Shown here one piece after another: positions 7,792-57,707 of a DNA stretch of 64,000 bases (position 1 is the first letter of the stretch; each line of letters opens with the position of its first letter). The notes under the pieces are model-generated. The model was not told the origin of the DNA. It saw only the letters and a program-made list of their open reading frames with translations, and ran no database searches. Made by a program: the position numbers and the translations under genes. This DNA is from Marsupella aquatica (lineage: Eukaryota > Plantae > Marchantiophyta), in the NCBI GenBank assembly GCA_973895155.1, contig OZ316891.1, positions 399,558 to 463,557 of the forward strand, read 5' to 3'.

Positions 7792-7840
7792 GTGTGGGGG
7801 ATCGCTAGATCCTCGGGCTTACCTCTGTTGGATAGCCTGA

Positions 7841-25541: not shown

Positions 25542-25764
25542 TGTGATGCCTAGCCAGGAATCACTAGGCCAATTTAAATGAAAAATCAGGAGTGTACCCT
25601 AGAAACACATTAGTATAGTAACAAAAAACATGGAAAATATAAACAATTAAGGGTGACTATGGAACCTGAGCCGAGGCCGGAAGTAAGGACGTCGGGGGAG
25701 GGAACACGATTAGGGTTAGGGCGCGCTAAGTGTCGGCGGCTAGGGGTAACCAACGGGAAGGAAG
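25542..25764 (+). mobile_element. 5' end fragment of a diverged giant LTR
   Basis: TGTGATGCCTAGCCAGGAATCAC...ATGGAACCTGAGCCGAGGCCGG matches the LTR start (reverse complement of 42667 leftwards). Homology stops abruptly at TGTGAC (25765). Confidence 0.85.
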
Positions 25765-27131: not shown

Positions 27132-30100
27132 TGTGGTGCGTCCCATGGCTCCCTAAACCCAAGAAACCCCCCAGCTCAAGCCGATTCCCGCAGGTTTCGT
27201 GCTTGGCGAGGCCGTTTCCGCGGCTTAGCGGCATGGGACGCTGCTAACCTTCTACTACTACTATTAACATTTTACACACATATACTGGACAGATTCTTCA
27301 TCGGGTCATGAGATACGTAGCCGGCCTAATATAGGCCTTCCCTTGTCTTCCCCTGTCTTCCCCTCCGTCTTGTTAGGTATGTTTGGATTCCGCCGCCGGA
27401 ATGATCCCCAATAGGCTTGGTTAAGCCGCTAAGACCTCTCTCAGCTCGACACATCCAACTATCACTCCCCTGCTTACTTTCCTTCCTTCTGTTGATGTGG
27501 GCACTCTTCACACAAGTTAATGCGACACACAAATAGCAAAATGACTCATTCTGACTGAGTCATACCATGCACTTGCCATACAAACAGTACATCTCATACA
27601 CAAGTTCTGCGAACTAAGCCGTGAGGCCAACTCTATTCAGCTCTTAGGCATGAGGAAACATGAATATACACAAGGGTCACTGTATGACTAACCGAGAGCT
27701 TCTCGTACTACTTGATCCCAGCCCGGCTGGTGCAAACTAAAAACTTGCTAAAGAAGAGGCCCTGAGCTCCCCGCTGCCCAGGTACTTATCCTGGTAGTGG
27801 ATCCGCCATTCTTTGCATCGTAAGCCTAATCTACCTGACAGTAATCTACTTGCCCGAATCTACCTATGTACAGCAAGGCAGGAGCACAAGTGTTGCTCCT
27901 ACCAGTGGAACCGCAATCCCACTAAGCTAAGTGTCAGGGCCGCTCCTGGTTCTGATCCTAATCCTAAACGTGGAGATCCGCGCCCGCCCTGCCCACTCAC
28001 GCCTCCTCCCTCCACGTCCGCCCTCCCTAAAAGGAACGGCGCCCTTGCACCGTCACGACACCGGTGGTGGATCCTCAATGGACGCCCCCAACACTTCCTC
28101 CTCAGCCACTGCCGTTGGCCCGCCTACTGACAGATTACCTGCCCTTGACCGAGTCAACTCTCCATCGGCCTGACTGGGTCCACCTTCGGCTTCAGCCTCG
28201 ACACCGGCCTCGGCAATACCCACGGCTTCGGCCTCAGCCACTCCCACGGCTTCGGCTTCAGCCACTCCCTCGGCTTCGGCCTCCCCTTCCCCTAGGGTAG
28301 TTGGATCCTTAGCCGTGACCCTGTCTGGGGTCGGTGCTGGGTCTACCTCCTTGATCACCACGGCCTGTGAAGTCGTATTACTCCTTGACCCTGAAGGTTT
28401 CCGCTTCTTCTTCGTTGGTGGCTCGGCAGCTGGTCCCTTCCCCTTCCCACTTACTTCCGGCACTAGTGCAGTTGACGCGGCTTGTCCTTCGGCAATTACC
28501 ACCCCTGGTAACTGGTTTGTCCCAACGGGAGATGGACCTGCTGCAGCTAAGCATTTAAATACTGCGGCTTGTTTCTTCAGCCGCTCTGTTTGGTTGTCGG
28601 CCCGCCGCTGTAGGTTCTCCATCTTCCTCGTGATTTCCTCCAACTCCTCTTGGGTTTCATCCAGGTCCTTACGTGCCCCCTCCAGCTCGTTTTTGGCCTC
28701 CTCCTGCTCCCTGTGGGCTTCCTCCAATTCCTTCTTCAAGGTAGCCCTCTCCTCCTGGGTTGCTCTTAGCTCCTTGTCGAGCTCTGCAATGATGACAGAC
28801 TCCATCTGGTTCATCTTGGCGTAAGTCTGTTCGAGCATCTCGTCCTTCTCCCTTAGGTCGGCCTTGAAGCTGGCCGTCAGGGACGCAAGCTCCTGCTGCA
28901 GCGCCATAATCCCTTGATAGGATTTCCCTAACTCGACCTCCTTCTGCTCAAGGGCTCCGCGGATTTTCTCGAGCTCCCCTTTCAACGCCCATTCCTTTCT
29001 TTGGGTCTCCGCCATGGCCCGGCTGTTGGCTGTTATGTGGGCCTCCTCTGTATTCTTCAGCTCTTGCTTCCACTTCTCCCTCTCTTTGATCGTGTCGGCC
29101 AACTCTTCCTGCGTCTGAGTCAGTTTATCCTTGATATTCTGATTATCAGCCTGCGCGGCGTCCAACTGCCCCTGCATGATGTTCAGCTCATGTCGTTTAA
29201 TCCGCAGTTCATCTTGGGCTTTCTTGGCCGCCCTTAGATCTTCAATCTCGGCTTCCATCCTCCTAAGCCGCCGAATGACCTCGTCCTTCTTGCTTCTCTC
29301 TAAAGCCACCGCTTCTTCTAATTGGTGCTTCTCCAACTGCTCCCTATGAAAAAAGGGTCCTACCTCCAACTCCTCTCCAAAGATGCCAAGCGCAAGTTCC
29401 CCACATATCTCACCATACTCCATGGCTCTATTCTTAGCGTAGGTGGAGTAAGTAGAAGTGATCGGCATCGCCCATCGTGGCCTCTGCTCCCACGCCGTCC
29501 TGCGGATCTCTTCAATCGTGGCTAGAGGTTTGCTTCCTTTTTCGGCTAGCCGCCTGATGTCCTCCGGCCAATCTCCTCCTGGTAAATCCTTTTCCTTAGC
29601 CAGGGCGGCCTCTTCCTCCTGCTTGATTCGCTCCTGAAATTCCTGCACCGTCTGTTTTATGCCGTCGAAGCTCGGGGGAGCAACATCTGGTGGGGGAGAC
29701 TCAGGGCTACTCTGCTGGTTGGGGTCCCCTCGCACTACCCTTGGAAGTGTGGGGACAAACCGGCCACAGGTCCTTACTCCTGGAACGTGATGGTCCGACC
29801 CATAGCCGGAATTATCATGGCTGCAGTCCTCCACTGCCTCCTCTACCTCTTGGACGTCCGGCTTCTCCCTCTCCTCTTCCTCGGTAGGAGCTTCAGGCAA
29901 TTCTGCCTCAGATTCGGAGCTTGAGGTTCCCACGTACATTCGAACACCTGGCTTGGATTCCGGCCTGATTCTCTTCTTGTCTCCAGCAAAGGGGTTTTCT
30001 CTTGTGAGCCGGTGTAGGCCTACCTCTGTAGTAGTGTCCTGCATTGTTGCCGTTGCCGTTGTTGTTGCCGATGCCGATTTCTTTTCTTTCTCCAGTAGTT

Positions 30101-31784
30101 TCAGCAGACTCTGCATGCCTGGTTGCTGCATCGGCAAGTCTTCCTTCCTGGGCCTAAACACCTGCTCGATCGTAGGACTAACAGGTGGTTGAGGCTTCTC
30201 AGCCAACGGCCTCGGCGTTGGAGCTTCCTCGGGTGCCCTTACCTGCAGGGGAAGTACCGGGGCAAAAGTCTGACCTCTAGCATACCGGCACAACAGCGGC
30301 ATGTGATAGCCAAGCCGCGACACGCTTCCCATGCCGATTACCTGCTGCTCCTCCTTTAAGATCTTCTTCAATTGGTTGAGGAGGTACCCGTTGTAGTCCC
30401 GGCTTGGGTCTGGCCTTTCTGCCAGATAGACCTGTGCTTTGCCGATCTCTGCCCTCGGCAAGTTACAATGCATGGTCACCCGCAAGAAGTCGATCATCTC
30501 TCCTATGTGCGGGTTGGTGCAGGTGTTCCGGAAGAAGCCATTCTTCGTTGATGGCCCGGGGAACGACCGGAACTCCTTGTCAGGCAAGGTCTTCCTGGTA
30601 TCAACTTTGGTCTTATTGCCTATCGGCAAGCCAAACACTTCGGCAATTACCTTGGGAGTAAGATAGAAATCCTTCCCATATATCCTCGTGCAATTGGTCT
30701 CGGGTTCCCATGACCCCACGAATTCTAATAGGTCTGACTCCGGTACCTCCGGCTTCAGCCATGGTAATCTTACAAAGGCCTCCAAGCCGGATCCGGCCCT
30801 TGGTACTTCTTGGTCGGCATGGCCGTAAAGCATGCATCCTCCTCCCGTGCAAAATGTAGTTGCACCTCCACCGGTAGGGTTTCCGCCCAGCCCTTCCAGG
30901 TGTCATCCCTGGTTGGAATGGCCTTGATGGGATCGACCTCCTCCTCTTCGGCTTCTCCGTGCCCCTTGCTCTGCTGCTCGGCTGGCTTCTTTGGTGCCGC
31001 CGACCTCGTTCTTTTTGCCGGGGTGGCTTCATCGTTGACGGCCCCCTTCCTCTTCATCTCTGCTGCCGTGGAGGTTTCTCCTAGCACCGTTGCCCGGGTC
31101 CACCTTTCCGTGCTACCCTTTAATTCCCAGTGTATGTCGTTGCAGTTCTTGATGGCCTCTCGGATGCCGACGACGCTGTCTTTGCAAAACAGAAGATCGT
31201 CGAGTTGATTGGAAGTAGGCGTCCACAGGAACTCGTCCTTGATGAGTTCGCCTCCTAAGAAAGCCGTCTTGTGCAGCTCCCACAATCGAGCGAGCTCCTG
31301 CCGTTCTCGAGCTGCCCTTTCTGACTCCTCGTCCTCGTAAGTCTTGATGTACTCAGTTGCCCGTTCGAACAGGCATCCCCAGAAATGTGCCGCTTGATTG
31401 ACGTTGCTCATACCCTCCTTAGGTCGATCGTCGGTATCTACTCTCTCCCCGAGTGCTTGCCTAAGCAGCTGACAGTAGTTGGCCTCCCGTAGTCGTCTGC
31501 CTAGTTCGTGCTCGCAAATGAGCCACCATCTCCTGCAAGCGCTCCTTACCCCTCTCCTCTACCGGTCCTTCTTCCCGTTGATCCTTCCTAGCCGCCGACG
31601 CTTAACGCGCCCTAACCCTAATCGGGTTTTCACCCTCAGCCTTACCTCCGGCCTCGGCCCGGGTTCCATGGTTGCCCCTAATTGTTTATATTTTCCTGGT
31701 TTTGTCCCTATACTAAGGTGTTCCTAGGGTGCCTTCCTGCTTTACCCACTTAACCGGTCGAGTGATTCCTGTCTAGGCATCACA
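27132..31784 (-). repeat. 3' LTR (4653 bp)
   Basis: Direct repeat of 38009-42667; bounded by the TSD and the PPT. Confidence 0.97.
28053..31411 (-). pseudogene. LTR-encoded accessory ORF, frameshifted copy
   Basis: A 7-bp deletion (ATGAAGC on +, near 30798) relative to the other LTR splits the ORF into 30770-31411 and 28053-30833. Confidence 0.92.
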
Positions 31785-34700
31785 TAGCTCCCCACTTAAT
31801 TGTGAAGCGTCCTCGCGAACAACTTCATCTTCGTCCATATAGTATTTCTTGAGGCGGTCATAATGGATGCGAACTGGATATACCTCTCCCGTAATGTTGG
31901 CCAATTGCACGGAGCCATTGGGGAACATCATGGTTACTCTAAAGGGTCCTAACCAGCGAGTGTAAAGCTTTCCTGGAAACCTATTATACCTACTGTCATA
32001 AAGTAGCACAAGATCACCGGTATGAATACTAACTACTTTTAACCTTTTATCATACTGCTGCTTCATGATATTTTGTCTATATTCTACTCTCTCGGCTGAA
32101 ATCATTCTCGCTTCCTCTAAAGCTTCTAACCTATATTCTCGCTCCTTTAGGCTCTCCTCCGCTGAGGCTCTTTCCTCAATTGTAACTTGAAATGTCGGTA
32201 TCTCAAGTTGCATGGGTACCAGGGCTTCTTGTCCAAAGGTTAAGAAGAAGGGTGTATGACCGGTAGTGGATTTATAGGCAAGATTGTAAGCAAAAACAGC
32301 AGCAAACAATTTATCATCCCAATCGAGTTTGTTCTGAGCTACTGTCTTGTTCAATATCTTTCCTATGATTCCGTTTGCTCGTTCTGTCAACCCGTTTGCC
32401 TTTGGATGGTAGGGAGTAGTAGGCCTATGTTTAACTAAATACTGCTCATTTAAACGACTAATTATATCATTCAAAAAATGGGTTCCTCTATCACTAACTA
32501 ATTCTAGGGGTGCTCCATACCTGGTGAAGATCTGCTCATACATGAATCTAGCCGTAGTAATTGCATCATCCTTCGTTGTTGGTCTGGCCTCTACCCATTT
32601 AGTTGCATAATCCGTAGCCAGGATTATGTACTTGTTCCGTTGAGGGTGGGTCAGTGGTTTCAGAGGTCCAATGTAATCAATACCCCACTTCTCGAATGGT
32701 GCCAGAGGTAGAATAGGGTGCAGTGGATGCCTGGTGGACGCCCTTGGTCCTCCCGCTCGTTGACAAGGATCGCATTGTTTGATAAACTGATAGACATCTT
32801 TGTGCAAGGTGGGCCACCAGTAACCGGCATTTAATATCTTCTTAGACGTGGTTACTGGGGCAAAATGTCCTCCGGCCTCCTCTCCATGCATGGCCCGTAG
32901 GACTCGTTTTACCTCTCTCTTTTCCAAACACCTTTGAATCGTGCCGTTGATTCCATGCTTGTGCAGTATGCCTTTAATGCACTGATACTGTCTGACCTTC
33001 CGTACAAAGACTGCGGCTTGCTCTCGGCTTAATCCTGGCTGTAATCTGGAAGTGCTGAGAAATTGTAAAATCTCAGGGTACCATGTACCAGCTATCTCCA
33101 CAACGAATAGCTCCTCGTCGGGGAATCGATCATCGATGCAATCCGTGGCAGGTTTACCTGTGATCCTTGAAAAGAAGTCGGCATTGGCATGTAACTTTCC
33201 CGGCTTGATCCTCAGCTCATAGTCAAACTCCTGTAATAGCAAAATCCATCTTGCTACTCTGCCTGTAAGGTCCGGCTTATTGACTAGGTACTTCAAACTT
33301 TCATGATCAGTATGAAAGATTACCTTGTACCCTAGTAAATAATGCCTAAACTTTTTACAAGAATAAATGACTCCTAATGCTTCTCTTTCCGTGGTAGAGT
33401 AGTTCCGTTCGGCATCGGCAAGCTGACGGCTTGCGAAGTATATGGGATGGTCCCTTCCTTTCTCATCCAACTGACTTAGTACTGAGCCAATACAGAAGCC
33501 CGAGACATCTACAAAAACATGAAAATCTTTGTTCCAGTCCGGTGCTATCATGACTGGGGCCTCTACTAACATCTGCTTCAATTCTACCACCGCTGTGACT
33601 CGTTCGGGTGTGGGTTCGAAGTCTGCTCCTGCCTTGAGCATATTGGTTAATGGTAAAGCCAGCTTGGCAAAATCCTTGATGAACCGGCGATAGTAACCAA
33701 TGCATCCCAAGAAGGATCTTACATCCTTTATGTTCTTAGGTTGCATGATATCTAGCCATACTGCTAGCTTACCTTTGTCAATCTCAATGCCCTTCCTTGA
33801 TACCTTGTGACCTAGTAGCACCCCCTCGGTTACTGCAAAAAAACATTTATCTGGGTGTAACTTGAGACCCACCTCTCTACATCTCATGAAGGTTTTCCTG
33901 AGGTATTTAGCATGTTTCGATGCCTTCCCGAATACTGCAAAGTCATCAATGAAGATTTCCATGAACTTTCTCAAGTAATCATGAAAAATGTTCACCATTA
34001 ATCGTTGGAACATAGCTGGTGCGTTGCAGAGTCCAAACGGCATACGATTGAAGACATAGATCCCCCATTCCGTGATGAAGGCCGTCTTGATTTGGTCTTC
34101 CTGCCGAATCCTGATTTGGTTATAACCAGAGTATCCATCCATGAATGAATATAGTTCATGACTGGCTACCATGTCTAGTACCATATCAGTAAACGGTAAA
34201 GGAAAATGGTCTTTTAATGTTGCTTCATTCAGCTTCCTGTAATCCTGACAAACCCGGATCTTGGGTTTACCATCGGGTCCAGGTTTCTTGGGAACTATCA
34301 CAATTGGAGACACCCAGTCTGAATGCAGGACTGGAGTGATGAATCCAGCTTCCACTAGTTTGTCGATTTCTGCTTTGACCAGCAGGGAATACTTCGGGTT
34401 CATCCTTCGAATTGGTTGTCGAAATGATTTGGCTCCTAACATGAGATCAATTTGATGTTCCCCTAGTGTTGGATCTACTCCCTTTAGATCTTGGTGACTC
34501 CATGCAAACACATCCTGAAATTCAATCAATAAGTCACTGATCTCTTTCTCGAGCTCAGGTGCTAGGTTTCTCCCTAAGTTCAGTTCTCTTCCCTCTCCTA
34601 AGTCAAGCTTCCGATATTGCCGTGCTTGGATCATATTAATCTGCTTCTTCAAATTCGGGTCCAGTTCGGCTTCCAGTCTCTCTAATCTCATACCTCCATA

Positions 34701-35039
34701 AACTGGGATCTCGGCTGGACTAGCCGAGTCGGTCCCTTCCTTGGTGTCCATAGATTGTCCCCTTACCGGTCTATTTGGTTTTGAATTAGTGGTCGGCTCC
34801 CCTTCCTGCCTTGGCTCTGGATCGTGTCTGTCCATCTCATCCACCTCTTGCTCCTGAGAGTTAGGCCGCTGTGCTCTCTCGGCTTCTAATAGGGCCTCAA
34901 TTTGTTCTGCCCTCGTAATCGGCTTGTATGCCGATCCCTTGGTATTTAATTTCTTGCCGATGATCGATGGCGTTGTGGACCCCGTCGGCTCTGCCACAAC
35001 GCCTGCAGAAAATCCACTGTCCCTGCTACTGCTCCCCAC
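31773..35039 (-). CDS. pol: Pol: reverse transcriptase, RNase H, integrase (intact; probably reached by -1 frameshift)
   Basis: CQDYRKLN, MDGYSGYNQI, MPFGLCNAP, FIDD; RH VDVSG..NYSTTERE; IN H-x6-H..CDPCQ, GIDYIG, SDRG, NGLTER, WLGPF. Confidence 0.96.
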   Translation of the reverse strand: MGSSSRDSGFSAGVVAEPTGSTTPSIIGKKLNTKGSAYKPITRAEQIEALLEAERAQRPNSQEQEVDEMDRHDPEPRQEGEPTTNSKPNRPVRGQSMDTKEGTDSASPAEIPVYGGMRLERLEAELDPNLKKQINMIQARQYRKLDLGEGRELNLGRNLAPELEKEISDLLIEFQDVFAWSHQDLKGVDPTLGEHQIDLMLGAKSFRQPIRRMNPKYSLLVKAEIDKLVEAGFITPVLHSDWVSPIVIVPKKPGPDGKPKIRVCQDYRKLNEATLKDHFPLPFTDMVLDMVASHELYSFMDGYSGYNQIRIRQEDQIKTAFITEWGIYVFNRMPFGLCNAPAMFQRLMVNIFHDYLRKFMEIFIDDFAVFGKASKHAKYLRKTFMRCREVGLKLHPDKCFFAVTEGVLLGHKVSRKGIEIDKGKLAVWLDIMQPKNIKDVRSFLGCIGYYRRFIKDFAKLALPLTNMLKAGADFEPTPERVTAVVELKQMLVEAPVMIAPDWNKDFHVFVDVSGFCIGSVLSQLDEKGRDHPIYFASRQLADAERNYSTTEREALGVIYSCKKFRHYLLGYKVIFHTDHESLKYLVNKPDLTGRVARWILLLQEFDYELRIKPGKLHANADFFSRITGKPATDCIDDRFPDEELFVVEIAGTWYPEILQFLSTSRLQPGLSREQAAVFVRKVRQYQCIKGILHKHGINGTIQRCLEKREVKRVLRAMHGEEAGGHFAPVTTSKKILNAGYWWPTLHKDVYQFIKQCDPCQRAGGPRASTRHPLHPILPLAPFEKWGIDYIGPLKPLTHPQRNKYIILATDYATKWVEARPTTKDDAITTARFMYEQIFTRYGAPLELVSDRGTHFLNDIISRLNEQYLVKHRPTTPYHPKANGLTERANGIIGKILNKTVAQNKLDWDDKLFAAVFAYNLAYKSTTGHTPFFLTFGQEALVPMQLEIPTFQVTIEERASAEESLKEREYRLEALEEARMISAERVEYRQNIMKQQYDKRLKVVSIHTGDLVLLYDSRYNRFPGKLYTRWLGPFRVTMMFPNGSVQLANITGEVYPVRIHYDRLKKYYMDEDEVVREDASQLSGELCDA
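31785..31799 (-). other. Polypurine tract, lying inside the pol coding sequence
   Basis: TTAAGTGGGGAGCTA immediately precedes the LTR TG; the pol stop (31773-31775) lies inside the LTR. Confidence 0.8.
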
Positions 35040-37939
35040 TTAGCCGTTTCATCCAATTGGTCTACATCCTTTACTTCCTCCGGAATTGCAGCTAAAAAGG
35101 TGGATTCTATTGTAAAGCAGTCCTCGACCTCTTCGTCTTCTTCTTCCAAGTCACCTTCCATTGGTTCTTGCCATAATCCGCTGGGGGGTACCTCTGGTCC
35201 AAAGACGCCTTCTTCGGTTAGGTTAGTGAGGCATTCTAACCAACGTACTTCATCGGCTGACTCCAGTCCACTATCGTACCCATCTACTTCCCTTATGCTT
35301 TTCCTACGGTCATCCTTAGTGTCCCAGGATACCGTGATAGAGGGGGTCCCGAAAGTGAACTGCTTTTTACCCCAATCTTCTATTACCTCGGCTAGGTACA
35401 GCCATGGCCTACCAATCAATAGCCGGAATGACGTAGGATTTACCGGCTTCATTACTACATAGTTAATGCTAAAGAAGATACCTCCTATCTCTGTCTTGAT
35501 GCCGGTTAACACTCCCGTCGGAATGACCTGATATCCATTGGCCATGTTCAACACTCTTCCAGTCATCTCCGGTGTTAGACCCCACCCTTTTGCTGTTGAA
35601 TCAATCATAATACATACCCCTGATCCTCCATCGATGGGTACCCGTAGTAATAATTCTCCTTGAATCATTAATGGTAATGCTGGGGCTCCTTGATCTTCTT
35701 CTATCATTAGTACGTCGGATCTGGTTGCTACCTTGGGTAATCTCGGCTTGCCGAGAATAGCCTTCCTTAATTGCTTCCGGAAGTATGGGCTATTTTTCAA
35801 TAGTTGACCTACTATTGCCGAGACTCTAGATTCTAGTACATCTTTAGCCAGGTCATAGGGAACAATCGGCTTCTCTTCTGGTGGTGTTTCCGTCTTGGAT
35901 TCGGCCAGTTTTGCCACGCTAGTCTCCACAGCTGTTGGGTCTTCCGAAGCAAACAATGCTTTTGCTCGTTTTACATCCTTGGCAATGGCTTCGGTATTCT
36001 CCAGGGTTTCTAATTCTCTTAGTTGTTCCTTAACACTAGCCGTAACAGAGGGGTAGAACAACTTAGGATGATCTCGATTGAAGTCGCTATCTTGTGAAGG
36101 ATTGGTTTCACTGGTGGGCTCATGGCTTACCTGTATTGCCGGAGCCCTCCCTTCTCCTTCTGTTGATGTTGACGAAGAGTCAATCCTTTCCTCCGTAACC
36201 TTCCCTTTATTTTTGGCCAGCCCATCCCACCTTTCCTTCCTTCTGGTAGATCGAGTAGAGACCCGGTAGCAATCATGATCTAAATCCTCCTCTGAGAAGG
36301 TTGATAGGGCTTCGGCCTCATCATCAGATGGTACGAACTCTGCCTCGGCATCCTCTTGCCATCCTAGTTCGATGTGGTTGATTTGAACTCCTCCGGGGGT
36401 AGTACCTGGCGGTAAGATCTTGATCGGCAAAAGCTTATGATTTGCGGCCAGGCCTGCCAACCAAGTAGGACATTGCCCTAGCATATGACCTTCCTGTCGG
36501 CATCCCATACATAGCTGAGCTGGTTGTCCATCACCCTGTTTGCGTGCATTCGGGCATTCTCTAGCAAAATGGCCAGGTTGACCACAATTATAGCACGCCG
36601 CAAATCTTTGCACATTCGGCCTAGGAGGTACTGACGGGTTCTGAATAATCCGAGGATACATCTCTCCTGGATTGTTCCTTAACCCTGACCACAGAGATGC
36701 AGGTCTGTTGGATAGGTCTTGTGCTCCAGTCTCACTGATGCCGAAAACACTATCAGCGGCATCTCCCAAAAAGTACTCTACTTCTCCCTGACATGGTCTG
36801 ATCTCGGCCACATGCCGAACATGATTAGTATTAAGCTTAGGACACGCATCTTTATGGTGTCCGGTTTTATAACATAAGGCACACCATACAGAGCTATCCT
36901 CCTGTACTACCTTCTTCTTTGGTTTTACCTCTGCAATGATAGCCTTAAGTTGCTCGGTAAGGGCTACGATGTTATCTGGTGGCTTAGCCTCCATCTTGAC
37001 TTTCGTCTTCCCTCTCCTTCTGCCCTTCCTTTTCCTAGTTTTTTCTTCTTCAGAACTAGAAGATGACTCACTCTTGCTACTCCCACTATCCGAGCTTGAC
37101 TTATCACTTCTAGACTTCTTGGAATGTTTCTTCTTCTTATCTTTTTTCTTATGGGGTGATCCCTCCTCTGATGAGGAACTCTCAGACTTAAGCTGTTTCT
37201 TCCGGCTTGTGATATCTGCATTAATGTATAATTGAATATCCTTAATTGCTTCGGCTAAAGTCTCCGGGTTCTCCTTCCTAATTGCAAAACTCATCTTCTG
37301 TGGCAAAGCATTCACCAACCATTGAAGTTGCATACCTTCAGATGCATTGGTCTTTGTACGTCTTACCAGTTTCTGAAAGCGTTGCAAGAACTTCCTGAAG
37401 GATTTGTTCTCCTTGAACCGAAGTTGTCCCAACTTCAGCACTGCTAGTTCTGAAGTTCCAATGGGTCGAAACTCCTTAACAAAGAGTGTTTTGAAGATAT
37501 CCCAGATGGCTTGATCTTCCACATCTAATGCTCTGTACCAAGGCCTAGCCTCACCCTTGAACAGGCCGGGAAGAATCTGCATCTTGATGGCCGATTCTCC
37601 ATTTGCTGCAGCGGTTCCCTCGAAATCATCCAACCATTCGTCCGGATCCTCATCTCCTCTCCCATGAAATGCTTTGTAATGTATGCGCGACCGCTGGCTC
37701 AATCTGGTCCCTGGCCTCTCGTCTGGCCGTGCCTCTGGTTCCCCCATGTCGGTTGGAGACTCACTTCTCCTTACCGACTCTTCCTCTGGTATGTCTTCTT
37801 CGACGCCACTTCCAGTTTCGGAGCTACCAGCTCTTTTTGCCCCTCTCAGTCGCTGTGTATCATGCCACCCGGCGAGCTGCTGCAGTCGAGCTCTCTCCCG
37901 TTGAATCACTCTTTCTTCCCTCGGCGTAAGGTCAGTCAT
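34946..37939 (-). CDS. gag: Gag-protease polyprotein (intact)
   Basis: FHGRGDEDPDEWL capsid motif, three CX2CX4HX4C knuckles, protease IDGGSG and LLIGRPWL. Confidence 0.95.
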   Translation of the reverse strand: MTDLTPREERVIQRERARLQQLAGWHDTQRLRGAKRAGSSETGSGVEEDIPEEESVRRSESPTDMGEPEARPDERPGTRLSQRSRIHYKAFHGRGDEDPDEWLDDFEGTAAANGESAIKMQILPGLFKGEARPWYRALDVEDQAIWDIFKTLFVKEFRPIGTSELAVLKLGQLRFKENKSFRKFLQRFQKLVRRTKTNASEGMQLQWLVNALPQKMSFAIRKENPETLAEAIKDIQLYINADITSRKKQLKSESSSSEEGSPHKKKDKKKKHSKKSRSDKSSSDSGSSKSESSSSSEEEKTRKRKGRRRGKTKVKMEAKPPDNIVALTEQLKAIIAEVKPKKKVVQEDSSVWCALCYKTGHHKDACPKLNTNHVRHVAEIRPCQGEVEYFLGDAADSVFGISETGAQDLSNRPASLWSGLRNNPGEMYPRIIQNPSVPPRPNVQRFAACYNCGQPGHFARECPNARKQGDGQPAQLCMGCRQEGHMLGQCPTWLAGLAANHKLLPIKILPPGTTPGGVQINHIELGWQEDAEAEFVPSDDEAEALSTFSEEDLDHDCYRVSTRSTRRKERWDGLAKNKGKVTEERIDSSSTSTEGEGRAPAIQVSHEPTSETNPSQDSDFNRDHPKLFYPSVTASVKEQLRELETLENTEAIAKDVKRAKALFASEDPTAVETSVAKLAESKTETPPEEKPIVPYDLAKDVLESRVSAIVGQLLKNSPYFRKQLRKAILGKPRLPKVATRSDVLMIEEDQGAPALPLMIQGELLLRVPIDGGSGVCIMIDSTAKGWGLTPEMTGRVLNMANGYQVIPTGVLTGIKTEIGGIFFSINYVVMKPVNPTSFRLLIGRPWLYLAEVIEDWGKKQFTFGTPSITVSWDTKDDRRKSIREVDGYDSGLESADEVRWLECLTNLTEEGVFGPEVPPSGLWQEPMEGDLEEEDEEVEDCFTIESTFLAAIPEEVKDVDQLDETAKWGAVAGTVDFLQALWQSRRGPQRHRSSARN
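34956..35015 (-). promoter_or_regulatory. -1 programmed ribosomal frameshift signal (slippery heptamer + stem/pseudoknot)
   Basis: G_GAT_TTT in the gag frame (35015-35009), 5-nt spacer, perfect 10-bp stem GGCGTTGTGG/CCACAACGCC. Loop GCCGA is complementary to downstream TCGGC. Pol is in the -1 frame. Confidence 0.8.
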
Positions 37940-37985
37940 TACCTACGCTTCCGTTCTAACTTCATATCTCACGGCTTAAGAAATG

Positions 37986-38004
37986 CCCCCTCCATCTAGC
38001 GCCA
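37986..38004 (-). other. Primer-binding site
   Basis: TGGCGCTAGATGGAGGGGG, 4 nt after the 5' LTR end. I did not identify the priming RNA. Confidence 0.8.
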
Positions 38005-38008
38005 AAAA

Positions 38009-41000
38009 TGTGGTGCGTCCCATGGCTCCCTAAACCCAAGAAACCCCCCAGCTCAAGCCGATTCCCGCAGGTTTCGTGCTTGGCGAGGCCGTTTCCGCGG
38101 CTTAGCGGCATGGGACGCTGCTAACCTTCTACTACTACTATTAACATTTTACACACATATACTGGACAGATCCTTCATCGGGTCATGAGATACGTAGCCG
38201 GCCTAATATAGGCCTTCCCTTGTCTTCCCCTGTCTTCCCCTCCGTCTTGTTAGGTATGTTTGGATTCCGCCGCCGGAATGATCCCCAATAGGCTTGGTTA
38301 AGCCGCTAAGACCTCTCTCAGCTCGACACATCCAACTATCACTCCCCTGCTTACTTTCCTTCCTTCTGTTGATGTGGGCACTCTTCACACAAGTTAATGC
38401 GACACACAAATAGCAAAATGACTCATTCTGACTGAGTCATACCATGCACTTGCCATACAAACAGTACATCTCATACACAAGTTCTGCGAACTAAGCCGTG
38501 AGGCCAACTCTATTCAGCTCTTAGGCATGAGGAAACATGAATATACACAAGGGTCACTGTATGACTAACCGAGAGCTTCTCGTACTACTTGATCCCAGCC
38601 CGGCTGGTGCAAACTAAAAACTTGCTAAAGAAGAGGCCCTGAGCTCCCCGCTGCCCAGGTACTTATCCTGGTAGTGGATCCGCCATTCTTTGCATCGTAA
38701 GCCTAATCTACCTGACAGTAATCTACTTGCCCGAATCTACCTATGTACAGCAAGGCAGGAGCACAAGTGTTGCTCCTACCAGTGGAACCGCAATCCCACT
38801 AAGCTAAGTGTCAGGGCCGCTCCTGGTTCTGATCCTAATCCTAAACGTGGAGATCCGCGCCCGCCCTGCCCACTCACGCTCCTCCCTCCACGTCCGCCCT
38901 CCCTAAAAGGAACGGCGCCCTTGCACCGTCACGACACCGGTGGTGGATCCTCAATGGACGCCCCCAACACTTCCTCCTCAGCCACTGCCGTTGGCCCGCC
39001 TACTGACAGATTACCTGCCCTTGACCGAGTCAACTCTCCATCGGCCTGACTGGGTCCACCTTCGGCTTCAGCCTCGACACCGGCCTCGGCAATACCCACG
39101 GCTTCGGCCTCAGCCACTCCCACGGCTTCGGCTTCAGCCACTCCCTCGGCTTCGGCCTCCCCTTCCCCTAGGGTAGTTGGATCCTTAGCCGTGACCCTGT
39201 CTAGGGTCGGTGCTGGGTCTACCTCCTTGATCACCACGGCCTGTGAAGTCGTATTACTCCTTGACCCTGAAGGTTTCCGCTTCTTCTTCGTTGGTGGCTC
39301 GGCAGCTGGTCCCTTCCCCTTCCCACTTACTTCCGGCACTGGTGCAGTTGACGCGGCTTGTCCTTCGGCAATTACCACCCCTGGTAACTGGTTTGTCCCA
39401 ACGGGAGATGGACCTGCTGCAGCTAAGCATTTAAATACTGCGGCTTGTTTCTTCAGCCGCTCTGTTTGGTTGTCGGCCCGCCGCTGTAGGTTCTCCATCT
39501 TCCTCATGATTTCCTCCAACTCCTCTTGGGTTTCATCCAGGTCCTTACGTGCCCCCTCCAGCTCGTTTTTGGCCTCCTCCTGCTCCCTGTGGGCTTCCTC
39601 CAATTCCTTCTTCAAGGTAGCCCTCTCCTCCTGGGTTGCTCTTAGCTCCTTGTCGAGCTCTGCAATGATGACAGACTCCATCTGGTTCATCTTGGCGTAA
39701 GTCTGTTCGAGCATCTCGTCCTTCTCCCTTAGGTCGGCCTTGAAGCTGGCCGTCAGGGACGCAAGCTCCTGCTGCAGCGCCATAATCCCTTGATAGGATT
39801 TCCCTAACTCGACCTCCTTCTGCTCAAGGGCTCCGCGGATTTTCTCGAGCTCCCCTTTCAACGCCCATTCCTTTCTTTGGGTCTCCGCCATGGCCCGGCT
39901 GTTGGCTGTTATGTGGGCCTCCTCTGTATTCTTCAGCTCTTGCTTCCACTTCTCCCTCTCTTTGATCGTGTCGGCCAACTCTTCCTGCGTCTGAGTCAGT
40001 TTATCCTTGATATTCTGATTATCAGCCTGCGCGGCGTCCAACTGCCCCTGCATGATGTTCAGCTCATGTCGTTTAATCCGCAGTTCATCTTGGGCTTTCT
40101 TGGCCGCCCTTAGATCTTCAATCTCGGCTTCCATCCTCCTAAGCCGCCGAATGACCTCGTCCTTCTTGCTTCTCTCTAAAGCCACCGCTTCTTCTAATTG
40201 GTGCTTCTCCAACTGCTCCCTATGAAAAAAGGGTCCTACCTCCAACTCCTCTCCAAAGATGCCAAGCGCAAGTTCCCCACATATCTCACCATACTCCATG
40301 GCTCTATTCTTAGCGTAGGTGGAGTAAGTAGAAGTGATCGGCATCGCCCATCGTGGCCTCTGCTCCCACGCCGTCTTGCGGATCTCTTCAATCGTGGCTA
40401 GAGGTTTGCTTCCTTTTTCGGCTAGCCGCCTGATGTCCTCCGGCCAATCTCCTCCTGGTAAATCCTTTTCCTTAGCCAGGGCGGCCTCTTCCTCCTGCTT
40501 GATTCGCTCCTGAAATTCCTGCACCGTCTGTTTTATGCCGTCGAAGCTCGGGGGAGCAACATCTGGTGGGGGAGACTCAGGGCTACTCTGCTGGTTGGGG
40601 TCCCCTCGCACTACCCTTGGAAGTGTGGGGACAAACCGGCCACAGGTCCTTACTCCTGGAACGTGATGGTCCGACCCATAGCCGGAATTATCATGGCTGC
40701 AGTCCTCCACTGCCTCCTCTACCTCTTGGACGTCCGGCTTCTCCCTCTCCTCTTCCTCGGTAGGAGCTTCAGGCAATTCTGCCTCAGATTCGGAGCTTGA
40801 GGTTCCCACGTACATTCGAACACCTGGCTTGGATTCCGGCCTGATTCTCTTCTTGTCTCCAGCAAAGGGGTTTTCTCTTGTGAGCCGGTGTAGGCCTACC
40901 TCTGTAGTAGTGTCCTGCATTGTTGCCGTTGCCGTTGTTGTTGCCGATGCCGATTTCTTTTCTTTCTCCAGTAGTTTCAGCAGACTCTGCATGCCTGGTT

Positions 41001-42667
41001 GCTGCATCGGCAAGTCTTCCTTCCTGGGCCTAAACACCTGCTCGATCGTAGGACTAACAGGTGGTTGAGGCTTCTCAGCCAACGGCCTCGGCGTTGGAGC
41101 TTCCTCGGGTGCCCTTACCTGCAGGGGAAGTACCGGGGCAAAAGTCTGACCTCTGGCATACCGGCACAACAGCGGCATGTGATAGCCAAGCCGCGACACG
41201 CTTCCCATGCCGATTACCTGCTGCTCCTCCTTTAAGATCTTCTTCAATTGGTTGAGGAGGTACCCGTTGTAGTCCCGGCTTGGGTCTGGCCTTTCTGCCA
41301 GATAGACCTGTGCTTTGCCGATCTCTGCCCTCGGCAAGTTACAATGCATGGTCACCCGCAAGAAGTCGATCATCTCTCCTATGTGCGGGTTGGTGCAGGT
41401 GTTCCGGAAGAAGCCATTCTTCGTTGATGGCCCGGGGAACGACCGGAACTCCTTGTCAGGCAAGGTCTTCCTGGTATCAACTTTGGTCTTATTGCCTATC
41501 GGCAAGCCAAACACTTCGGCAATTACCTTGGGAGTAAGATAGAAATCCTTCCCATATATCCTCGTGCAATTGGTCTCGGGTTCCCATGACCCCACGAATT
41601 CTAATAGGTCTGACTCCGGTACCTCCGGCTTCAGCCATGGTAATCTTACAAAGGCCTCCAAGCCGGATCCGGCCATGAAGCCTTGGTACTTCTTGGTCTG
41701 CATGGCCGTAAAGCATGCATCCTCCTCCCGTGCAAAATGTAGTTGCACCTCCACCGGTAGGGTTTCCGCCCAGCCCTTCCAGGTGTCATCCCTGGTTGGA
41801 ATGGCCTTGATGGGATTGACCTCCTCCTCTTCGGCTTCTCCGTGCCCCTTGCTCTGCTGCTCGGCTGGCTTCTTTGGTGCCGCCAACCTCGTTCTTTTTG
41901 CCGGGGTGGCTTCATTGTTGACGGCCCCCTTCCTCTTCATCTCTGCTGCCGTGGAGGTTTCTCCTAGCACCGTTGCCCGGGTCCACCTTTCCGTGCTACC
42001 CTTTAATTCCCAGTGTATGTCGTTGCAGTTCTTGATGGCCTCTCGGATGCCGACGACGCTGTCTTTGCAAAATAGAAGATCGTCGAGTTGATTGGAAGTA
42101 GGCGTCCACAGGAACTCGTCCTTGATGAGTTCGCCTCCTAAGAAAGCCGTCTTCTGCAGCTCCCACAATCGAGCGAGCTCCTGCCGTTCTCGAGCTGCCC
42201 TTTCTGACTCCTCGTCCTCGTAAGTCTTGATGTACTCAGTTGCCCGTTCGAACAGGCATCCCCAGAAATGTGCCGCTTGATTGACGTTGCTCATACCCTC
42301 CTTAGGTCGATCGTCGGTATCTACTCTCTCCCCGAGTGCTTGCCTAAGCAGCTGACAGTAGTTGGCCTCCCGTAGTCGTCTGCCTAGTTCGTGCTCGCAA
42401 ATGAGCCACCATCTCCTGCAAGCGCTCCTTACCCCTCTCCTCTACCGGTCCTTCTTCCCGTTGATCCTTCCTAGCCGCCGACGCTTAACGCGCCCTAACC
42501 CTAATCGGGTTTTCACCCTCAGCCTTACCTCCGGCCTCGGCCCGGGTTCCATGGTTGCCCCTAATTGTTTATATTTTCCTGGTTTTGTCCCTATACTAAG
42601 GTGTTCCTAGGGTGCCTTCCTGCTTTACCCACTTAACCGGTCGAGTGATTCCTGTCTAGGCATCACA
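38009..42667 (-). repeat. 5' LTR (4659 bp)
   Basis: Direct repeat of 27132-31784; about a dozen substitutions and two indels seen by eye. Confidence 0.97.
38929..42294 (-). CDS. LTR-encoded accessory protein, 1121 aa (plant-transposon accessory-like N-terminal domain, long coiled coil, acidic tail)
   Basis: Uninterrupted ORF wholly inside the LTR. It has LLEFVGSW..RIYGKDFYLTPKVIAEVFGLP, about 270 aa of E/K/L heptads and a KKKRK NLS-like motif. Confidence 0.9.
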   Translation of the reverse strand: MSNVNQAAHFWGCLFERATEYIKTYEDEESERAARERQELARLWELQKTAFLGGELIKDEFLWTPTSNQLDDLLFCKDSVVGIREAIKNCNDIHWELKGSTERWTRATVLGETSTAAEMKRKGAVNNEATPAKRTRLAAPKKPAEQQSKGHGEAEEEEVNPIKAIPTRDDTWKGWAETLPVEVQLHFAREEDACFTAMQTKKYQGFMAGSGLEAFVRLPWLKPEVPESDLLEFVGSWEPETNCTRIYGKDFYLTPKVIAEVFGLPIGNKTKVDTRKTLPDKEFRSFPGPSTKNGFFRNTCTNPHIGEMIDFLRVTMHCNLPRAEIGKAQVYLAERPDPSRDYNGYLLNQLKKILKEEQQVIGMGSVSRLGYHMPLLCRYARGQTFAPVLPLQVRAPEEAPTPRPLAEKPQPPVSPTIEQVFRPRKEDLPMQQPGMQSLLKLLEKEKKSASATTTATATMQDTTTEVGLHRLTRENPFAGDKKRIRPESKPGVRMYVGTSSSESEAELPEAPTEEEEREKPDVQEVEEAVEDCSHDNSGYGSDHHVPGVRTCGRFVPTLPRVVRGDPNQQSSPESPPPDVAPPSFDGIKQTVQEFQERIKQEEEAALAKEKDLPGGDWPEDIRRLAEKGSKPLATIEEIRKTAWEQRPRWAMPITSTYSTYAKNRAMEYGEICGELALGIFGEELEVGPFFHREQLEKHQLEEAVALERSKKDEVIRRLRRMEAEIEDLRAAKKAQDELRIKRHELNIMQGQLDAAQADNQNIKDKLTQTQEELADTIKEREKWKQELKNTEEAHITANSRAMAETQRKEWALKGELEKIRGALEQKEVELGKSYQGIMALQQELASLTASFKADLREKDEMLEQTYAKMNQMESVIIAELDKELRATQEERATLKKELEEAHREQEEAKNELEGARKDLDETQEELEEIMRKMENLQRRADNQTERLKKQAAVFKCLAAAGPSPVGTNQLPGVVIAEGQAASTAPVPEVSGKGKGPAAEPPTKKKRKPSGSRSNTTSQAVVIKEVDPAPTLDRVTAKDPTTLGEGEAEAEGVAEAEAVGVAEAEAVGIAEAGVEAEAEGGPSQADGELTRSRAGNLSVGGPTAVAEEEVLGASIEDPPPVS

Positions 42668-42709
42668 GAAACCAAATAGGGAGTCCGACATCAGAAGAGG
42701 CCAAGTACT

Positions 42710-51814: not shown

Positions 51815-53037
51815 GGCAATGGCATCGGCTTCAACATCAGCCTCGGCTACGGCCTCATCCTCGGCCACGGCCTCAGCTTTGGCCACGGCCTCCCCGGCTT
51901 GCTCAAGAGGTGGATCTGGGATACCGGCCTCATTACTGAGTAGTTCGGCTTGGGTCGCACCATCCCCACCTTTGGTGGTAGCGGAATCTATTGCCGTGTT
52001 CATGCCGGAGGTTGGTACCAGTTTGAGTACGGCTTGAGGGGTCGAATAACCTCCGGACCCCGAAGGTTTCCGCTTCTTCTTCTTCACTATCTCTATAGCC
52101 GGTTCCTTCCCCTTGCCGCCAACGTCCGGCACCGGGCCGTGTGTCACGGCTGGTCCTTCAGCAATTACCACCCCGGCTAACTGGTTTGCCCCAACGGGAG
52201 ATGGACCTGATGCAGCTAAGCATTTAAATACTGCGGCTTGTTTCTTCAGCCGCTCTGTTTGGTTGTCGGCCCGCCGCTGTAGGTTCTCCATCTTCCTCAT
52301 GATTTCCTCCAACTCCTCTTGGGTCTCATCCTGGTCCTTATGTGCCTCCTCCAGCTCGTGTTTGGCTTCCTCCAATTCCCTCTTGGTGGTAGCCCTCTCC
52401 TCCTGGGTTGCTCTTAGCTCCTTGTTGAGCTCCGCTACGACCTCAGACTCCATGTTATTCATCTTGGCATAAGTCTGGTCGAGCTGAGCGTCCTTCTCCC
52501 GCAGGTCGGCTTGAAGCTGGCCGTCAGGGATGCAAGCTCCTGTTGTAGCGCAATAATCCCTTGATAGGATTTCCCTAACTCGGCCTCCTTCTGCTCAAGG
52601 GCTCTGCGGACGACCTCAAGCTCTTCCTTCAGCGCCCTCTCCCTTCTCTGAGTCTCCGCCGTGACCCGGTTGTTGACTGCTATATGGGCCTCCTCTGCGT
52701 CTCTCAGCTCCTTCTTCCATTTCTCCCTGTCCTTGATTGCGTCGGCCAATTCTTCTTGGGTCTGAGTCAGTTTATCCTTGATAATCTGATTATCAGCCTG
52801 CGCGGTGTCCAACTGCCCCTGCATGATGTTCAGCTCATGCCACTTAATCCGCAGTTCATCTTGGGCTTTCTTGGCCGCCCTTAGATTTTCAATCTCGGCT
52901 TCCATCCTCCTAAGCCGCCGGATGACCTCGTCCTTCTTGCTTCTCTCTAAAGCCACCGCTTCTTCTAACTGGTGCTTCTCCAACTGCTCCCTATGGAAAA
53001 AGGGTCCTACCTCCAACTCCTCCCCAAAGATGCCGAG
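51815..53037 (-). pseudogene. Fragment of another diverged giant-LTR ORF, target of the 53038 insertion
   Basis: Translates to the coiled-coil part of the LTR protein (LGIFGEELEVGPFF...), with a frameshift near 52510. It is cut exactly at the TG of the next LTR. Confidence 0.9.
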
Positions 53038-53968
53038 TGTGGTGCATCCCATGGCTCCCTAAACCCAAGAAACCCCCCAGCTCAAGCCGATTCCCGCAGG
53101 TTTCGTGCTTGGCGAGGCCGTTTCCGCGGCTTAGCGGCATGGGACGCTGCTAACCTTCTACTACTACTATTAACATTTTACACACATATACTGGACAGAT
53201 CCTTCATCGGGTCATGAGATACGTAGCCGGCCTAATATAGGCCTTCCCCTGTCTTCCCCTGTCTTCCCCTGTCTTCCCCTCCGTCTTGTTAGGTATGTTT
53301 GGATTCCGCCGCCGGAATGATCCCCAATAGGCTTGGTTAAGCCGCTAAGACCTCTCTCAGCTCGACACATCCAACTCTCACTCCCCTGCTTACTTTCCTT
53401 CCTTCTGTTGATGTGGGCACTCTTCACACAAGTTAATGCGACACACAAATAGCAAAATGACTCATTCTGACTGAGTCATACCATGCACTTGCCATACAAA
53501 CAGTACATCTCATACACAAGTTCTTCGAACTAAGCCGTGAGGCCAACTCTATTCAGCTCTTAGGCATGAGGAAACATGAATATACACAAGGGTCACTGTA
53601 TGACTAACCGAGAGCTTCTCGTACTACTTGATCCCAGCCCGGCTGGTGCAAACTAAAAACTTGCTAAAGAAGAGGCCCTGAGCTCCCCGCTGCCCAGGTA
53701 CTTATCCTGGTAGTGGATCCGCCATTCTTTGCATCGTAAGCCTAATCTACTTAACAGTAATCTACTTGCCCGAATCTACCTATGTACAGCAAGGCAGGAG
53801 CACAAGTGTTGCTCCTACCAGTGGGACCGCAATCCCACTAAGCTAAGTGTCAGGGCCGCTCCTGGTTCTGATCCTAATCCTAAACGTGGAGATCCGTGCC
53901 CGCCCTGCCCACTCACGCCTCCTCCCTCCACGTCCGCCCTCCCTAAAAGGAACGGCGCCCTTGCACCG

Positions 53969-56900
53969 TCACGACACCGGTGGTGGATCCTCAATGGACG
54001 CCCCCAACACTTCCTCCTCAGCCACTGCCGTTGGCCCGCCTACTGACAGATTACCTGCCCTTGACCGAGTCAACTCTCCATCGGCCTGACTGGGTCCACC
54101 TTCGGCTTCAGCCTCGACAACTCCCACGGCTTCGGCTTCAGCCAACCCCACGGCTTCGGCTTCAGCCAACCCCACGGCTTCGGCTTCAGCCAACCCCACG
54201 GCTTCGGCCTCCCCTTCCCCTAGGGTAGTTGGATCCTTAGCCGTGACCCTGTCTGGGGTCGGTGCTGGGTCTACCTCCTTGATCACCACGGCCTGTGAAG
54301 TCGTATTACTCCTTGACCCTGAAGGTTTCCGCTTCTTCTTCGTTGGTGGCTCGGCAGCTGGTCCCTTCCCCTTCCCACTTACCTCCGGCACTGGTGCAGG
54401 TGGCGCGGCTTGTCCTTCGGCAATTACCACCCCTGGTAACTGGTTTGTCCCAACAGGAGATGGACCTGCTGCAGCTAAGCATTTAAGTACTGCGGCTTGT
54501 TTCTTCAGCCGCTCTGTTTGGTTGTCGGCCCGCCGCTGTAGGTTCTCCATCTTCCTCGTGATTTCCTCCAACTCCTCTTGGGTTTCATCCAGGTCCTTAC
54601 GTGCCCCCTCCAGCTCGTTTTTGGCCTCCTCCTGCTCCCTGTGGGCTTCCTCCAATTCCTTCTTCAAGGTAGCCTTCTCCTCCTGGGTTGCTCTTAGCTC
54701 CTTGTCGAGCTCTGCAATGATGACAGACTCCATCTGGTTCATCTTGGCGTAAGTCTGTTCGAGCATCTCGTCCTTCTCCCTTAGGTCGGCCTTGAAGCTG
54801 GCCGTCAGGGACGCAAGCTCCTGCTGCAGCGCCATAATCCCTTGATAGGATTTCCCTAACTCGACCTCCTTCTGCTCAAGGGCTCCGCGGATTTTCTCGA
54901 GCTCCCCTTTCAACGCCCATTCCTTTCTTTGGGTCTCCGCCATGGCCCGGCTGTTGGCTGTTATGTGGGCCTCCTCTGTATTCTTCAGCTCTTGCTTCCA
55001 CTTTTCCCTTTCTTTGATCGTGTCGGCCAACTCTTCCTGCGTCTGAGTCAGTTTATCCTTGATATTCTGATTATCAGCCTGCGCGGCGTCCAACTGCCCC
55101 TGCATGATGTTCAGCTCATGTCGTTTAATCCGCAGTTCATCTTGGGCTTTCTTGGCCGCCCTTAGATCTTCAATCTCGGCTCCCATCCTCCTAAGCCGCC
55201 GAATGACCTCGTCCTTCTTGCTTCTCTCTAAAGCCACCGCTTCTTCTAATTGGTGCTTCTCCAACTGCTCCCTATGGAAAAAGGGTCCTACCTCCAACTC
55301 CTCTCCAAAGATGCCGAGCGCAAGTTCCCCACACATCTCACCATACTCCATGGCTCTATTCTTAGCGTAGGTGGAGTAAGTAGAAGTGATCGGCATCGCC
55401 CATCGTGGCCTCTGCTCCCAAGCCGTCCTGCGGATCTCTTCAATCGTGGCTAGAGGTTTGCTTCCTTTTTCGGCTAGCCGCCTGATGTCCTCCGGCCAAT
55501 CTCCTCCTGGTAAATCCTTTTCCTTAGCCAGGGCGGCCTCTTCCTCCTGCTTGATTCGCTCCTGAAATTCCTGCACCGTCTGTTTTATGCCGTCGAAGCT
55601 CGGGGGAGCAACATCTGGTGGGGGAGACTCAGGGCTACTCTGCTGGTTGGGGTCCCCTCGCACTACCCTTGGAAGTGTGGGGACAAACCGGCCACAGGTC
55701 CTTACTCCTGGAACGTGATGGTCCGACCCATAGCCGGAATTATCATGGCTGCAGTCCTCCACTGCCTCCTCTACCTCTTGGATTTCCGGCTTCTCCCTCT
55801 CCTCTTCCTCGGTAGGAGCTTCAGGCAATTCTGCCTCAGATTCGGAGCTTGAGGTTCCCACGTACATTCGAACACCTGGCTTGGATTCCGGCCTGATTCT
55901 CTCCTTGTCTCCAGCAAAGGGGTTTTCTCTTGTGAGCCGGTGTAGGCCTACCTCTGTAGTAGTGTCCTGCATTGTTGCCGTTGCCGTTGTTGTTGCCGAT
56001 GCCGATTTCTTTTCTTTCTCCAGTAGTTTCAGCAGACTCTGCATGCCTGGTTGCTGCATCGGCAAGTCTTCCTTCCTGGGCCTAAACACCTGCTCGATCG
56101 TAGGACTAACAGGTGGTTGAGGCTTCTCAGCCAACGGCCTCGGTGTTGGAGCTTCCTCGGGTGCCCTTACCTGCAGGGGAAGTACCGGGGCAAAAGTCTG
56201 ACCTCTGGCATACCGGCACAATAGCGGCATGTGATAGCCAAGCCGCGACACGCTCCCCATGCCGATTACCTGCTGCTCCTCCTTTAAGATCTTCTTCAAT
56301 TGGTTGAGGAGGTACCCGTTGTAGTCCCGGCTTGGGTCTGGCCTTTCTGCCAGATAGACCTGTGCCTTGCCGATCTCTGCCCTCGGCAAGTTACAATGCA
56401 TGGTCACCCGCAAGAAGTCGATCATCTCTCCTATGTGCGGGTTGGTGCAGGTGTTCCGGAAGAAGCCATTCTTCGTTGATGGCCCGGGGAACGACCGGAA
56501 CTCCTTGTCAGGCAAGGTCTTCCTGGTATCAACTTTGGTCTTATTGCCCATCGGCAAGCCAAACACTTCGGCAATTACCTTGGGAGTAAGATAGAAATCC
56601 TTCCCATATATCCTCGTGCAATTGGTCTCGGGTTCCCATGACCCCACGAATTCTAATAGGTCTGACTCCGGTACCTCCGGCTTCAGCCATGGTAATCTTA
56701 CAAAGGCCTCCAAGCCGGATCCGGCCATGAAGCCTTGGTACTTCTTGGTCTGCATGGCCGTAAAGCATGCATCCTCCTCCCGTGCAAAATGTAGTTGCAC
56801 CTCCACCGGTAGGGTTGCCGCCCAGCCCTTCCAGGTGTCATCCCTGGTTGGAATGGCCTTGATGGGATCGACCTCCTCCTCTTCGGCTTCTCCCTGCCTC

Positions 56901-57643: not shown

Positions 57644-57707
57644 TATACTAAGGTGTTCCTAGGGTGCCTTCCTGCTTTACCCACTTAACCGGCCGAGTGA
57701 TTCCTGT

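Follow-up and report, generated by a model that had tools for sequence, protein, structure and literature searches.

Can the long terminal repeat (LTR) of a plant retrotransposon carry a complete protein gene that is kept by selection? The question is raised by a 64,000-nucleotide stretch of Marsupella aquatica DNA (Marchantiophyta; assembly GCA_973895155.1, contig OZ316891.1, positions 399,558 to 463,557 of the forward strand; hereafter the window, in whose coordinates all positions are given). It holds a full-length retrotransposon, E1, whose LTRs were described in an initial annotation as about 4.65 kb long, as making up 60% of the element and as each bearing a complete gene of about 1,100-1,200 aa. 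E1 is composed as follows:

27132..42667, minus strand: element E1, a full-length Ty3/gypsy non-chromovirus of 15,536 bp, with a target-site duplication (TSD) GTTTC at 27127-27131 and 42668-42672
38009..42667, minus strand: E1 5' LTR, 4,659 bp, TG..CA
37987..38008, minus strand: TTTT spacer and primer-binding site (PBS) starting TGGCGCTAG, not of the tRNA-Met type
34946..37939, minus strand: gag-protease open reading frame (ORF), 997 aa (Retrotrans_gag, zf-CCHC)
31773..34835, minus strand: pol with reverse transcriptase (RT), RNase H and integrase, without a second RNase H and without a chromodomain
31785..31801, minus strand: polypurine tract (PPT) within the integrase coding tail
27132..31784, minus strand: E1 3' LTR, 4,653 bp, TG..CA, containing the final three pol codons and the pol stop

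Comparison of the window with itself revealed the direct repeat 38009-42667 / 27132-31784, with a third copy at 53038-57719. The two E1 LTRs account for 59.9% of the element, in line with the dimensions first annotated, and since they differ from each other by 12 substitutions and 2 indels only, the insertion of E1 is recent. Because TG..CA ends, TSD, PBS and PPT mark the repeats, the LTR limits are fixed independently of any ORF. Within the LTR the self-comparison detected no inner repeat of at least 100 bp, so the E1 LTR is not a short-LTR cassette. The 6,224-bp interior encodes the gag-protease (997 aa) and an RT-RNase H-integrase of 1,020 aa counted from the first Met. As the initial annotation had stated, the PPT lies in pol and the pol stop in the LTR: the PPT codes for the last pol residues QLSGEL, and CDA* falls in LTR nt 1-12, with the stop at nt 10-12.

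Further members of the family lie in the same window:

53038..64000, minus strand: element E2, with its 3' LTR at 53038-57719 and a 1,211-aa frame at 53969-57604; the 5' LTR leaves the window
1837..12343, plus strand: relic A, which matches LTR nt 937-4682 at 84-87% identity, has 4 stops in its ORF and is split by a long interspersed nuclear element (LINE)
5283..12105, plus strand: this LINE, inside the LTR tail of relic A, near-complete and of the plant L1 type (DUF4283 ORF1, endonuclease-RT, zf-RVT), with a 16-bp TSD
51946..53037, minus strand: relic B, coiled-coil portion of the ORF (LTR nt 2402-3521, 83%), adjoining the E2 3' end in mid-ORF
25542..25760, plus strand: relic C, LTR nt 1-214 at 80%, with a non-pol upstream flank without PPT

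E2 has the layout of E1 (98.1% identity in the LTR, 99.3% in the interior) and carries one stop each in gag and pol. The view that a second element and three relics share the design thus stands for E2, whereas relics A, B and C are fragments, none with a whole LTR. Relic A extends from LTR nt 937 across the ORF as far as the terminal CACCACA and, by its sequence, links the ORF to the LTR 3' end. As the 5' end of relic C stands beside a flank that is neither pol nor PPT, the insertion of a diverged relative, too, started ahead of the ORF region. At the junction 53037/53038 the E2 3' end adjoins the coiled-coil ORF part of an older relative in the same orientation, suggesting nesting. Outside the window, LTR sequence is partly present in 13 of the 15 sequencing runs listed (from 10 studies). 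Seven runs were compared by their short contigs, in which depth is not copy number; one run may come from the source sample itself. In runs X1, X2, X4 and X6 these contigs reach 29-30 of the 30 bins into which the element region was divided, and over the LTR stretch they fill 30, 29, 20 and 24 of 30 bins in runs X4, X7, X11 and X13, respectively. One X13 contig joins exactly at 42667, and none of the contigs of the seven runs spans the whole element. Single run contigs also connect LTR ends to positions inside the element.

The gene itself is represented twice in E1:

38929..42294, minus strand: intact ORF of the E1 5' LTR, 1,121 aa, ATG at LTR nt 374
28053..31411, minus strand: copy of the ORF in the 3' LTR, split into ORFs of 213 and 926 aa by a 7-nt deletion near codon 205 (~30800)

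The longest stop-free frame of the LTR extends over 1,170 codons, far beyond chance, as no frame in 200 mononucleotide shuffles exceeded 304. A complete gene in each LTR was too generous a description, as the 5' copy is intact and the 3' copy is broken. Similarly, the start first placed about 75-115 bp into the LTR applies to E2 alone (start in LTR nt 62-116), where a 1,211-aa frame is open from nt 116; both E1 LTRs have a TAG at codon 37 of this frame. On sequence grounds nt 374 is the likelier start, because the 86-codon 5' extension shows three non-synonymous changes (one of them a stop) versus one synonymous change and because the homologue P0007, a single sequence with a start assigned by a gene caller, begins within 1-2 residues of the second Met. 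Conversely, the ATG at nt 116 has good context, and relic C keeps it together with 33 codons at 68%.

Computing the ratio of non-synonymous to synonymous rates (dN/dS), as the initial annotation suggested, revealed purifying selection. Against relic A, with its four stop codons and gap codons set aside, the ORF yielded dS 0.44, dN 0.11 and dN/dS 0.26 (bootstrap 0.21-0.33, 909 codons), distributed as 0.05 for the globular domain described below, 0.31 for the linker, 0.20 for the coil and 0.58 for the tail, and all five indels preserve the frame. The ratio was 0.37 against relic B (390 codons) and 0.38 and 0.32 for the E2 ORF against the two E1 copies, while gag and pol gave 0.16 and 0.20. The non-coding LTR tail, with 622 of 677 positions identical to relic A as compared to 225 mismatches at 917 third codon positions, is also constrained. 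With the LTR marks, E2 and the relics, these values bear out that the gene is a selected trait of the family within a true LTR, and we are almost certain that it is located in the LTR and selected. Of the differences from E2, 57 are common to both E1 LTRs and only 8 and 4 are private, which is the pattern that a single template for both LTRs would give. This pattern and LTR regeneration support the proposal that every insertion delivers two gene copies, with the proviso, seen in the E1 3' copy, that both need not be intact.

What the protein might do was addressed through its domains:

41134..41802, minus strand: conserved globular domain spanning ORF aa 165-387; only weak leads connect it with PMD/DUF1985/Transposase_32
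39553..40152, minus strand: predicted long coiled coil, ~aa 715-914, after which come a basic patch (KKKRK) and a tail of acidic repeats

The coil is predicted from composition, an ATG16 match below threshold and the low dN/dS of this region. On a simple scale no transmembrane stretch was detected (highest 19-residue hydropathy 1.05), and we therefore rejected an env-like membrane protein as a candidate. At the Pfam threshold the domain, 21 homologues and 16 alignment members gave no match to PMD, DUF1985, Transposase_32 or ATHILA profiles, nor was any match informative at E up to 10. Word-index protein searches retrieved none of 6,362 candidates with ORF aa 1-420, none of 3,324 with the 'longer' form of alignment A1 and two of 7,994 with its 'near' form, both from Calypogeia. 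The alignments exclude the short fragments P0006 and P0020 (A3 also P0008), and the domain alignments exclude P0005, P0007 and P0009, which match the N-terminal part only; P0013, a bacterial repeat adhesin, was discarded as a false match. Sequence-profile searches of the PDB returned no match except, in the second search, one at E 0.96, and Foldseek found nothing at E up to 0.001 among PDB and viral proteins. The modelled structure showed a weak fold resemblance to VANC21 at 6% sequence identity, the language-model likeness is weak as well, and the named Atlas neighbours among those listed are all plant transposon accessory or PMD-type domains. On balance we lean slightly towards placing the domain in the PMD group, and the protein may be related to DNA-binding factors through which plant transposons evade silencing.

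How could such a gene have come to lie in an LTR, and how might it be expressed? Two features of the LTR may be relevant:

42568..42573, minus strand: TATAAA at LTR nt 95, also present in relic C, putative promoter of the LTR gene
38705..38741, minus strand: three RGTAGATT copies at a ~15-bp period in the non-coding LTR tail, putative cis element

We propose an ancestor with the order pol, sense accessory gene, PPT and short LTR, as in Athila, in which a purine run in the integrase tail would have taken over plus-strand priming, such that everything behind it became U3. Such an upstream shift is consistent with where the PPT lies, in the integrase tail, and with the likeness of the gene to Athila-type 3' ORFs; capture of the gene into U3 is probable. 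The LTR gene would have its own promoter near nt 95 and a poly(A) site in the LTR tail, and gag-pol RNA would start further 3', in the conserved tail. A telomere-like TTAGGGTTAGGG at LTR nt 164-175 (window 42493-42504, minus strand) is kept in relic C; it may be a telobox-type promoter element. Reverse transcription would copy the gene of the parent's 3' LTR into both daughter LTRs. Since only the 3' copy is inherited, daughters of E1 would carry two broken copies, while the intact 5' copy of E1 could still supply protein. The protein may oligomerise via its coiled coil, bind short element motifs and act in trans, in which case a single intact copy in each element, or even less, would suffice. 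That the protein is a nuclear, DNA-binding, trans-acting factor protecting its family against silencing, with the RGTAGATT triple as candidate target, is the function we favour, though it is more likely wrong than right; the motif stands three times in each of the four LTR tails, which hold 12 of its 13 matches in the window.

Several results weigh against this account. A pattern search for a vestigial PPT in the LTR tail found none, and the purine run at LTR nt 4300-4325, considered as such a vestige, is not distinct from the purine-rich background. Relatives with the ORF outside a short LTR, which the shift of the priming site proposed earlier would lead one to look for, were absent from 102 metagenome pattern matches to the ORF, 74 to P0027 and three viral contigs for pol, and alignment A2 contained no stretch conserved enough for a related-locus search. 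Without vestige or relative, the order of events is one that we infer. In addition, the RGTAGATT copies in the four tails are related by descent, no k-mer excess over shuffles was found in the element, and a second structure model did not list VANC21, which weakens the fold assignment.

An alternative origin, in which the PBS moved downstream and R/U5 thereby took in a 5' extra ORF of the kind seen in Ogre or Tekay, would have genomic RNA start at about LTR nt 125 with the ORF ahead of gag. It agrees with the sole canonical TATAAA of the LTR being at nt 95, with the gag-protease / RT-RNase H-integrase split, which is like that of Ogre and Retand, and with how common 5' extra ORFs are in a survey (Ogre 21%, TatII 23%, Tekay 33%; PMC6317226). 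Yet it would require a site with new complementarity to a tRNA and a minus-strand strong-stop DNA of 4.5 kb and would leave gag behind a 3.4-kb ORF, whereas a PPT in pol without a 3' spacer is the expected trace of an upstream PPT shift; we regard this origin as improbable. Far less credible still, and largely refuted, is that the long repeats reflect an assembly artefact or a one-off segmental duplication with the ORF as an unselected passenger: no long read crosses the element and the runs compared consist of short contigs, but the LTRs differ at 14 places, TSD, PBS and PPT coincide exactly with the repeat ends, E2 shows the same layout with mutations of its own, no inner repeat hints at a short LTR within the unit, and dN/dS is 0.05-0.37.

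A different function for a selected U3 gene is possible, if doubtful: the protein might use its coiled coil in particle assembly, RNA transport, cell-to-cell movement or integration targeting. The weak fold assignment, the largely coiled-coil or low-complexity protein and the designation of Athila 3' ORFs as env-like with open function, in the accessible part of PMC7264820, fit this possibility; the lack of a transmembrane stretch, the Atlas neighbours and the basic patch, which resembles a nuclear localisation signal, speak against it. Taken as a whole, the reading of E1 as a young Ty3/gypsy element with a U3-absorbed Athila-type gene, encoding a nuclear DNA-binding PMD/DUF1985/Transposase_32 factor that aids silencing escape, seems to us evenly balanced between right and wrong.

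A further signal of E1 concerns the expression of pol:

34969..35015, minus strand: candidate -1 frameshift signal between gag-protease and RT, with G GAU UUU, a 5-nt spacer and a 10-bp stem

The heptamer G GAU UUU, which is functional in plant viruses, is in the gag frame, and the pol frame is open upstream of its own first Met; the stem has a z of -2.6 and was equalled in stability in 2 of 200 shuffles. Elsewhere in the window, 45558-50996 (plus strand) harbours an intron-poor cluster that may be another mobile element, with ORFs of 500 aa (without assignment), 499 aa (with a piece of an N6/N4 DNA methylase at its end, PF01555, E 1.5e-6) and 239 aa, a NIF phosphatase (PF03031) and a 79-bp tandem array at 47308-47701. 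Just upstream of E1, at 42710-44128 (minus strand), are ORFs of 170 and 249 aa with no Pfam match; the former has a methylase-like motif by eye, and E1 may sit in a second methylase-bearing element. Positions 1-1836 contain a 218-bp inverted repeat (1-218 / 1090-1307, 94%) and a 284-bp direct repeat (238-521 / 1553-1836, 98%), which stop exactly at the start of relic A. A copia-type gag fragment is found at 16739-17197 (minus strand), and 22519-23119 (plus strand) is a degenerate tandem array of 15-36-bp units that encodes a frame rich in Glu, Ala and Lys.

LTRs are usually treated as non-coding, and solo-LTR formation as host removal of retrotransposon genes. An LTR with a complete selected gene breaks both rules: recombination would leave the gene behind, and a solo LTR would probably be a self-contained expression cassette. 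The E1 LTR also exceeds the 1-2 kb LTR defaults of ATHILAfinder. In the parts of the literature available, LTRs of up to 5-6.5 kb (PMC6317226; PMC6431247), extra ORFs described as internal (PMC7264820; PMC11963269; PMC3485330; PMC7197481) and a U3 gene in mouse mammary tumour virus (MMTV; PMC9412291) are each known separately. The literature searched, which left out most subscription papers and the per-element ORF positions of REXdb, contained no plant retrotransposon with a complete gene in its LTR. The layout is real and unusual, its proposed origin plausible and the function a lead. If the domain is PMD/VANC-like, it suggests a function, open to testing, for the extra ORFs of Athila/Tat elements, which have long lacked an explanation, and bears on whether PMDs arose in retrotransposons or hosts, an origin called fully open (PMC5418596). 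It is conceivable, though we think it rather unlikely, that in a retrotransposon lineage outside the seed plants an entire VANC/MAIN-like anti-silencing gene came to lie in the LTR along with its promoter and target motifs, that every solo LTR is then an autonomous anti-silencing cassette for the family, and that PMD-like domains borne by retrotransposons are older than angiosperms, in which case MAIN, VANC and the Athila ORF could derive from them.

Among known systems, E1 belongs to Ty3/gypsy by its order of gag, protease, RT, RNase H and integrase between LTRs, with TSD, PBS and PPT, and the best solved relative of its RT is Ty3 RT (E 6e-69). Chromoviruses are marked by a chromodomain after integrase and mostly by tRNA-Met or self priming; we rejected this assignment because pol has no Chromo match and ends at the PPT and the PBS starts TGGCGC. 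The Tat clades with an additional RNase H (aRH; TatI-III, Ogre, Retand) were likewise rejected, as E1 has a single RNase H (aa 409-537) before an integrase from aa 639 and none extra in gag-protease or pol. Against Phygy and Selgy argues the 5-bp TSD, theirs being 4 bp. Absence of aRH and chromodomain and a 5-bp TSD are features of Athila, and E1 has all three. Athila elements have a PBS for tRNA-Asp or tRNA-Asn, and tRNA-Asn is a candidate primer of E1. The E1 PBS diverges from the Brassicaceae ATHILA PBS after 7 nt; no tRNA gene was found in the window, and the PBS pattern had no match in viral contigs.

As far as the available parts of the sources go, E1 resembles Athila, a non-chromovirus OTA lineage (PMC6317226, PMC11728184, PMC7197481), in these features, in a non-Met PBS after an AT-rich spacer, in a size inside Athila's 7.3-22.8 kb and in a sense extra ORF directly after pol. 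The 3' extra ORF of Athila is Athila ORF PF03078 / Transposase_32 PF20167, and the LTR gene resembles such ORFs. By contrast, the E1 ORF stands downstream of the PPT, within the LTR, and so occurs twice, whereas the ATHILA ORF is described there as internal and on a spliced subgenomic RNA; ATHILA LTRs are typically 1-2 kb (ATHILAfinder defaults) versus 4.66 kb, and in E1 gag-protease is separate from RT-RNase H-integrase. Ogre differs by its aRH and internal extra ORFs, with no LTR-borne gene described in the portions at hand. VANC21 of VANDAL21 and the MAIN/MAIL1 PMD proteins (PMC5735166, PMC13547354, PMC5418596; PDB 9LNK) are likewise accessory and combine a globular domain with a coiled coil and repeats that vary. 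Unlike the LTR gene, VANC resides on dicot DNA transposons, and with 6% identity and no clear motif array in E1, homology to the LTR protein is not established. Human immunodeficiency virus nef and foamy-virus 3' genes overlap U3, but retroviral U3 genes belong to animal hosts and encode unrelated and much smaller proteins, as opposed to 3.4 kb in a plant. Similar to E1, MMTV has a protein gene, sag, inside its LTR, with its own U3 promoter according to the accessible text (PMC9412291). Finally, rice Retrosat2, RIRE3 and RIRE8, as portrayed in the part of PMC3485330 available, share with E1 LTRs of >3 kb and a selected extra ORF, yet theirs, ORF0, lies upstream of gag-pol and is treated apart from the LTR, and these elements group with a different lineage.

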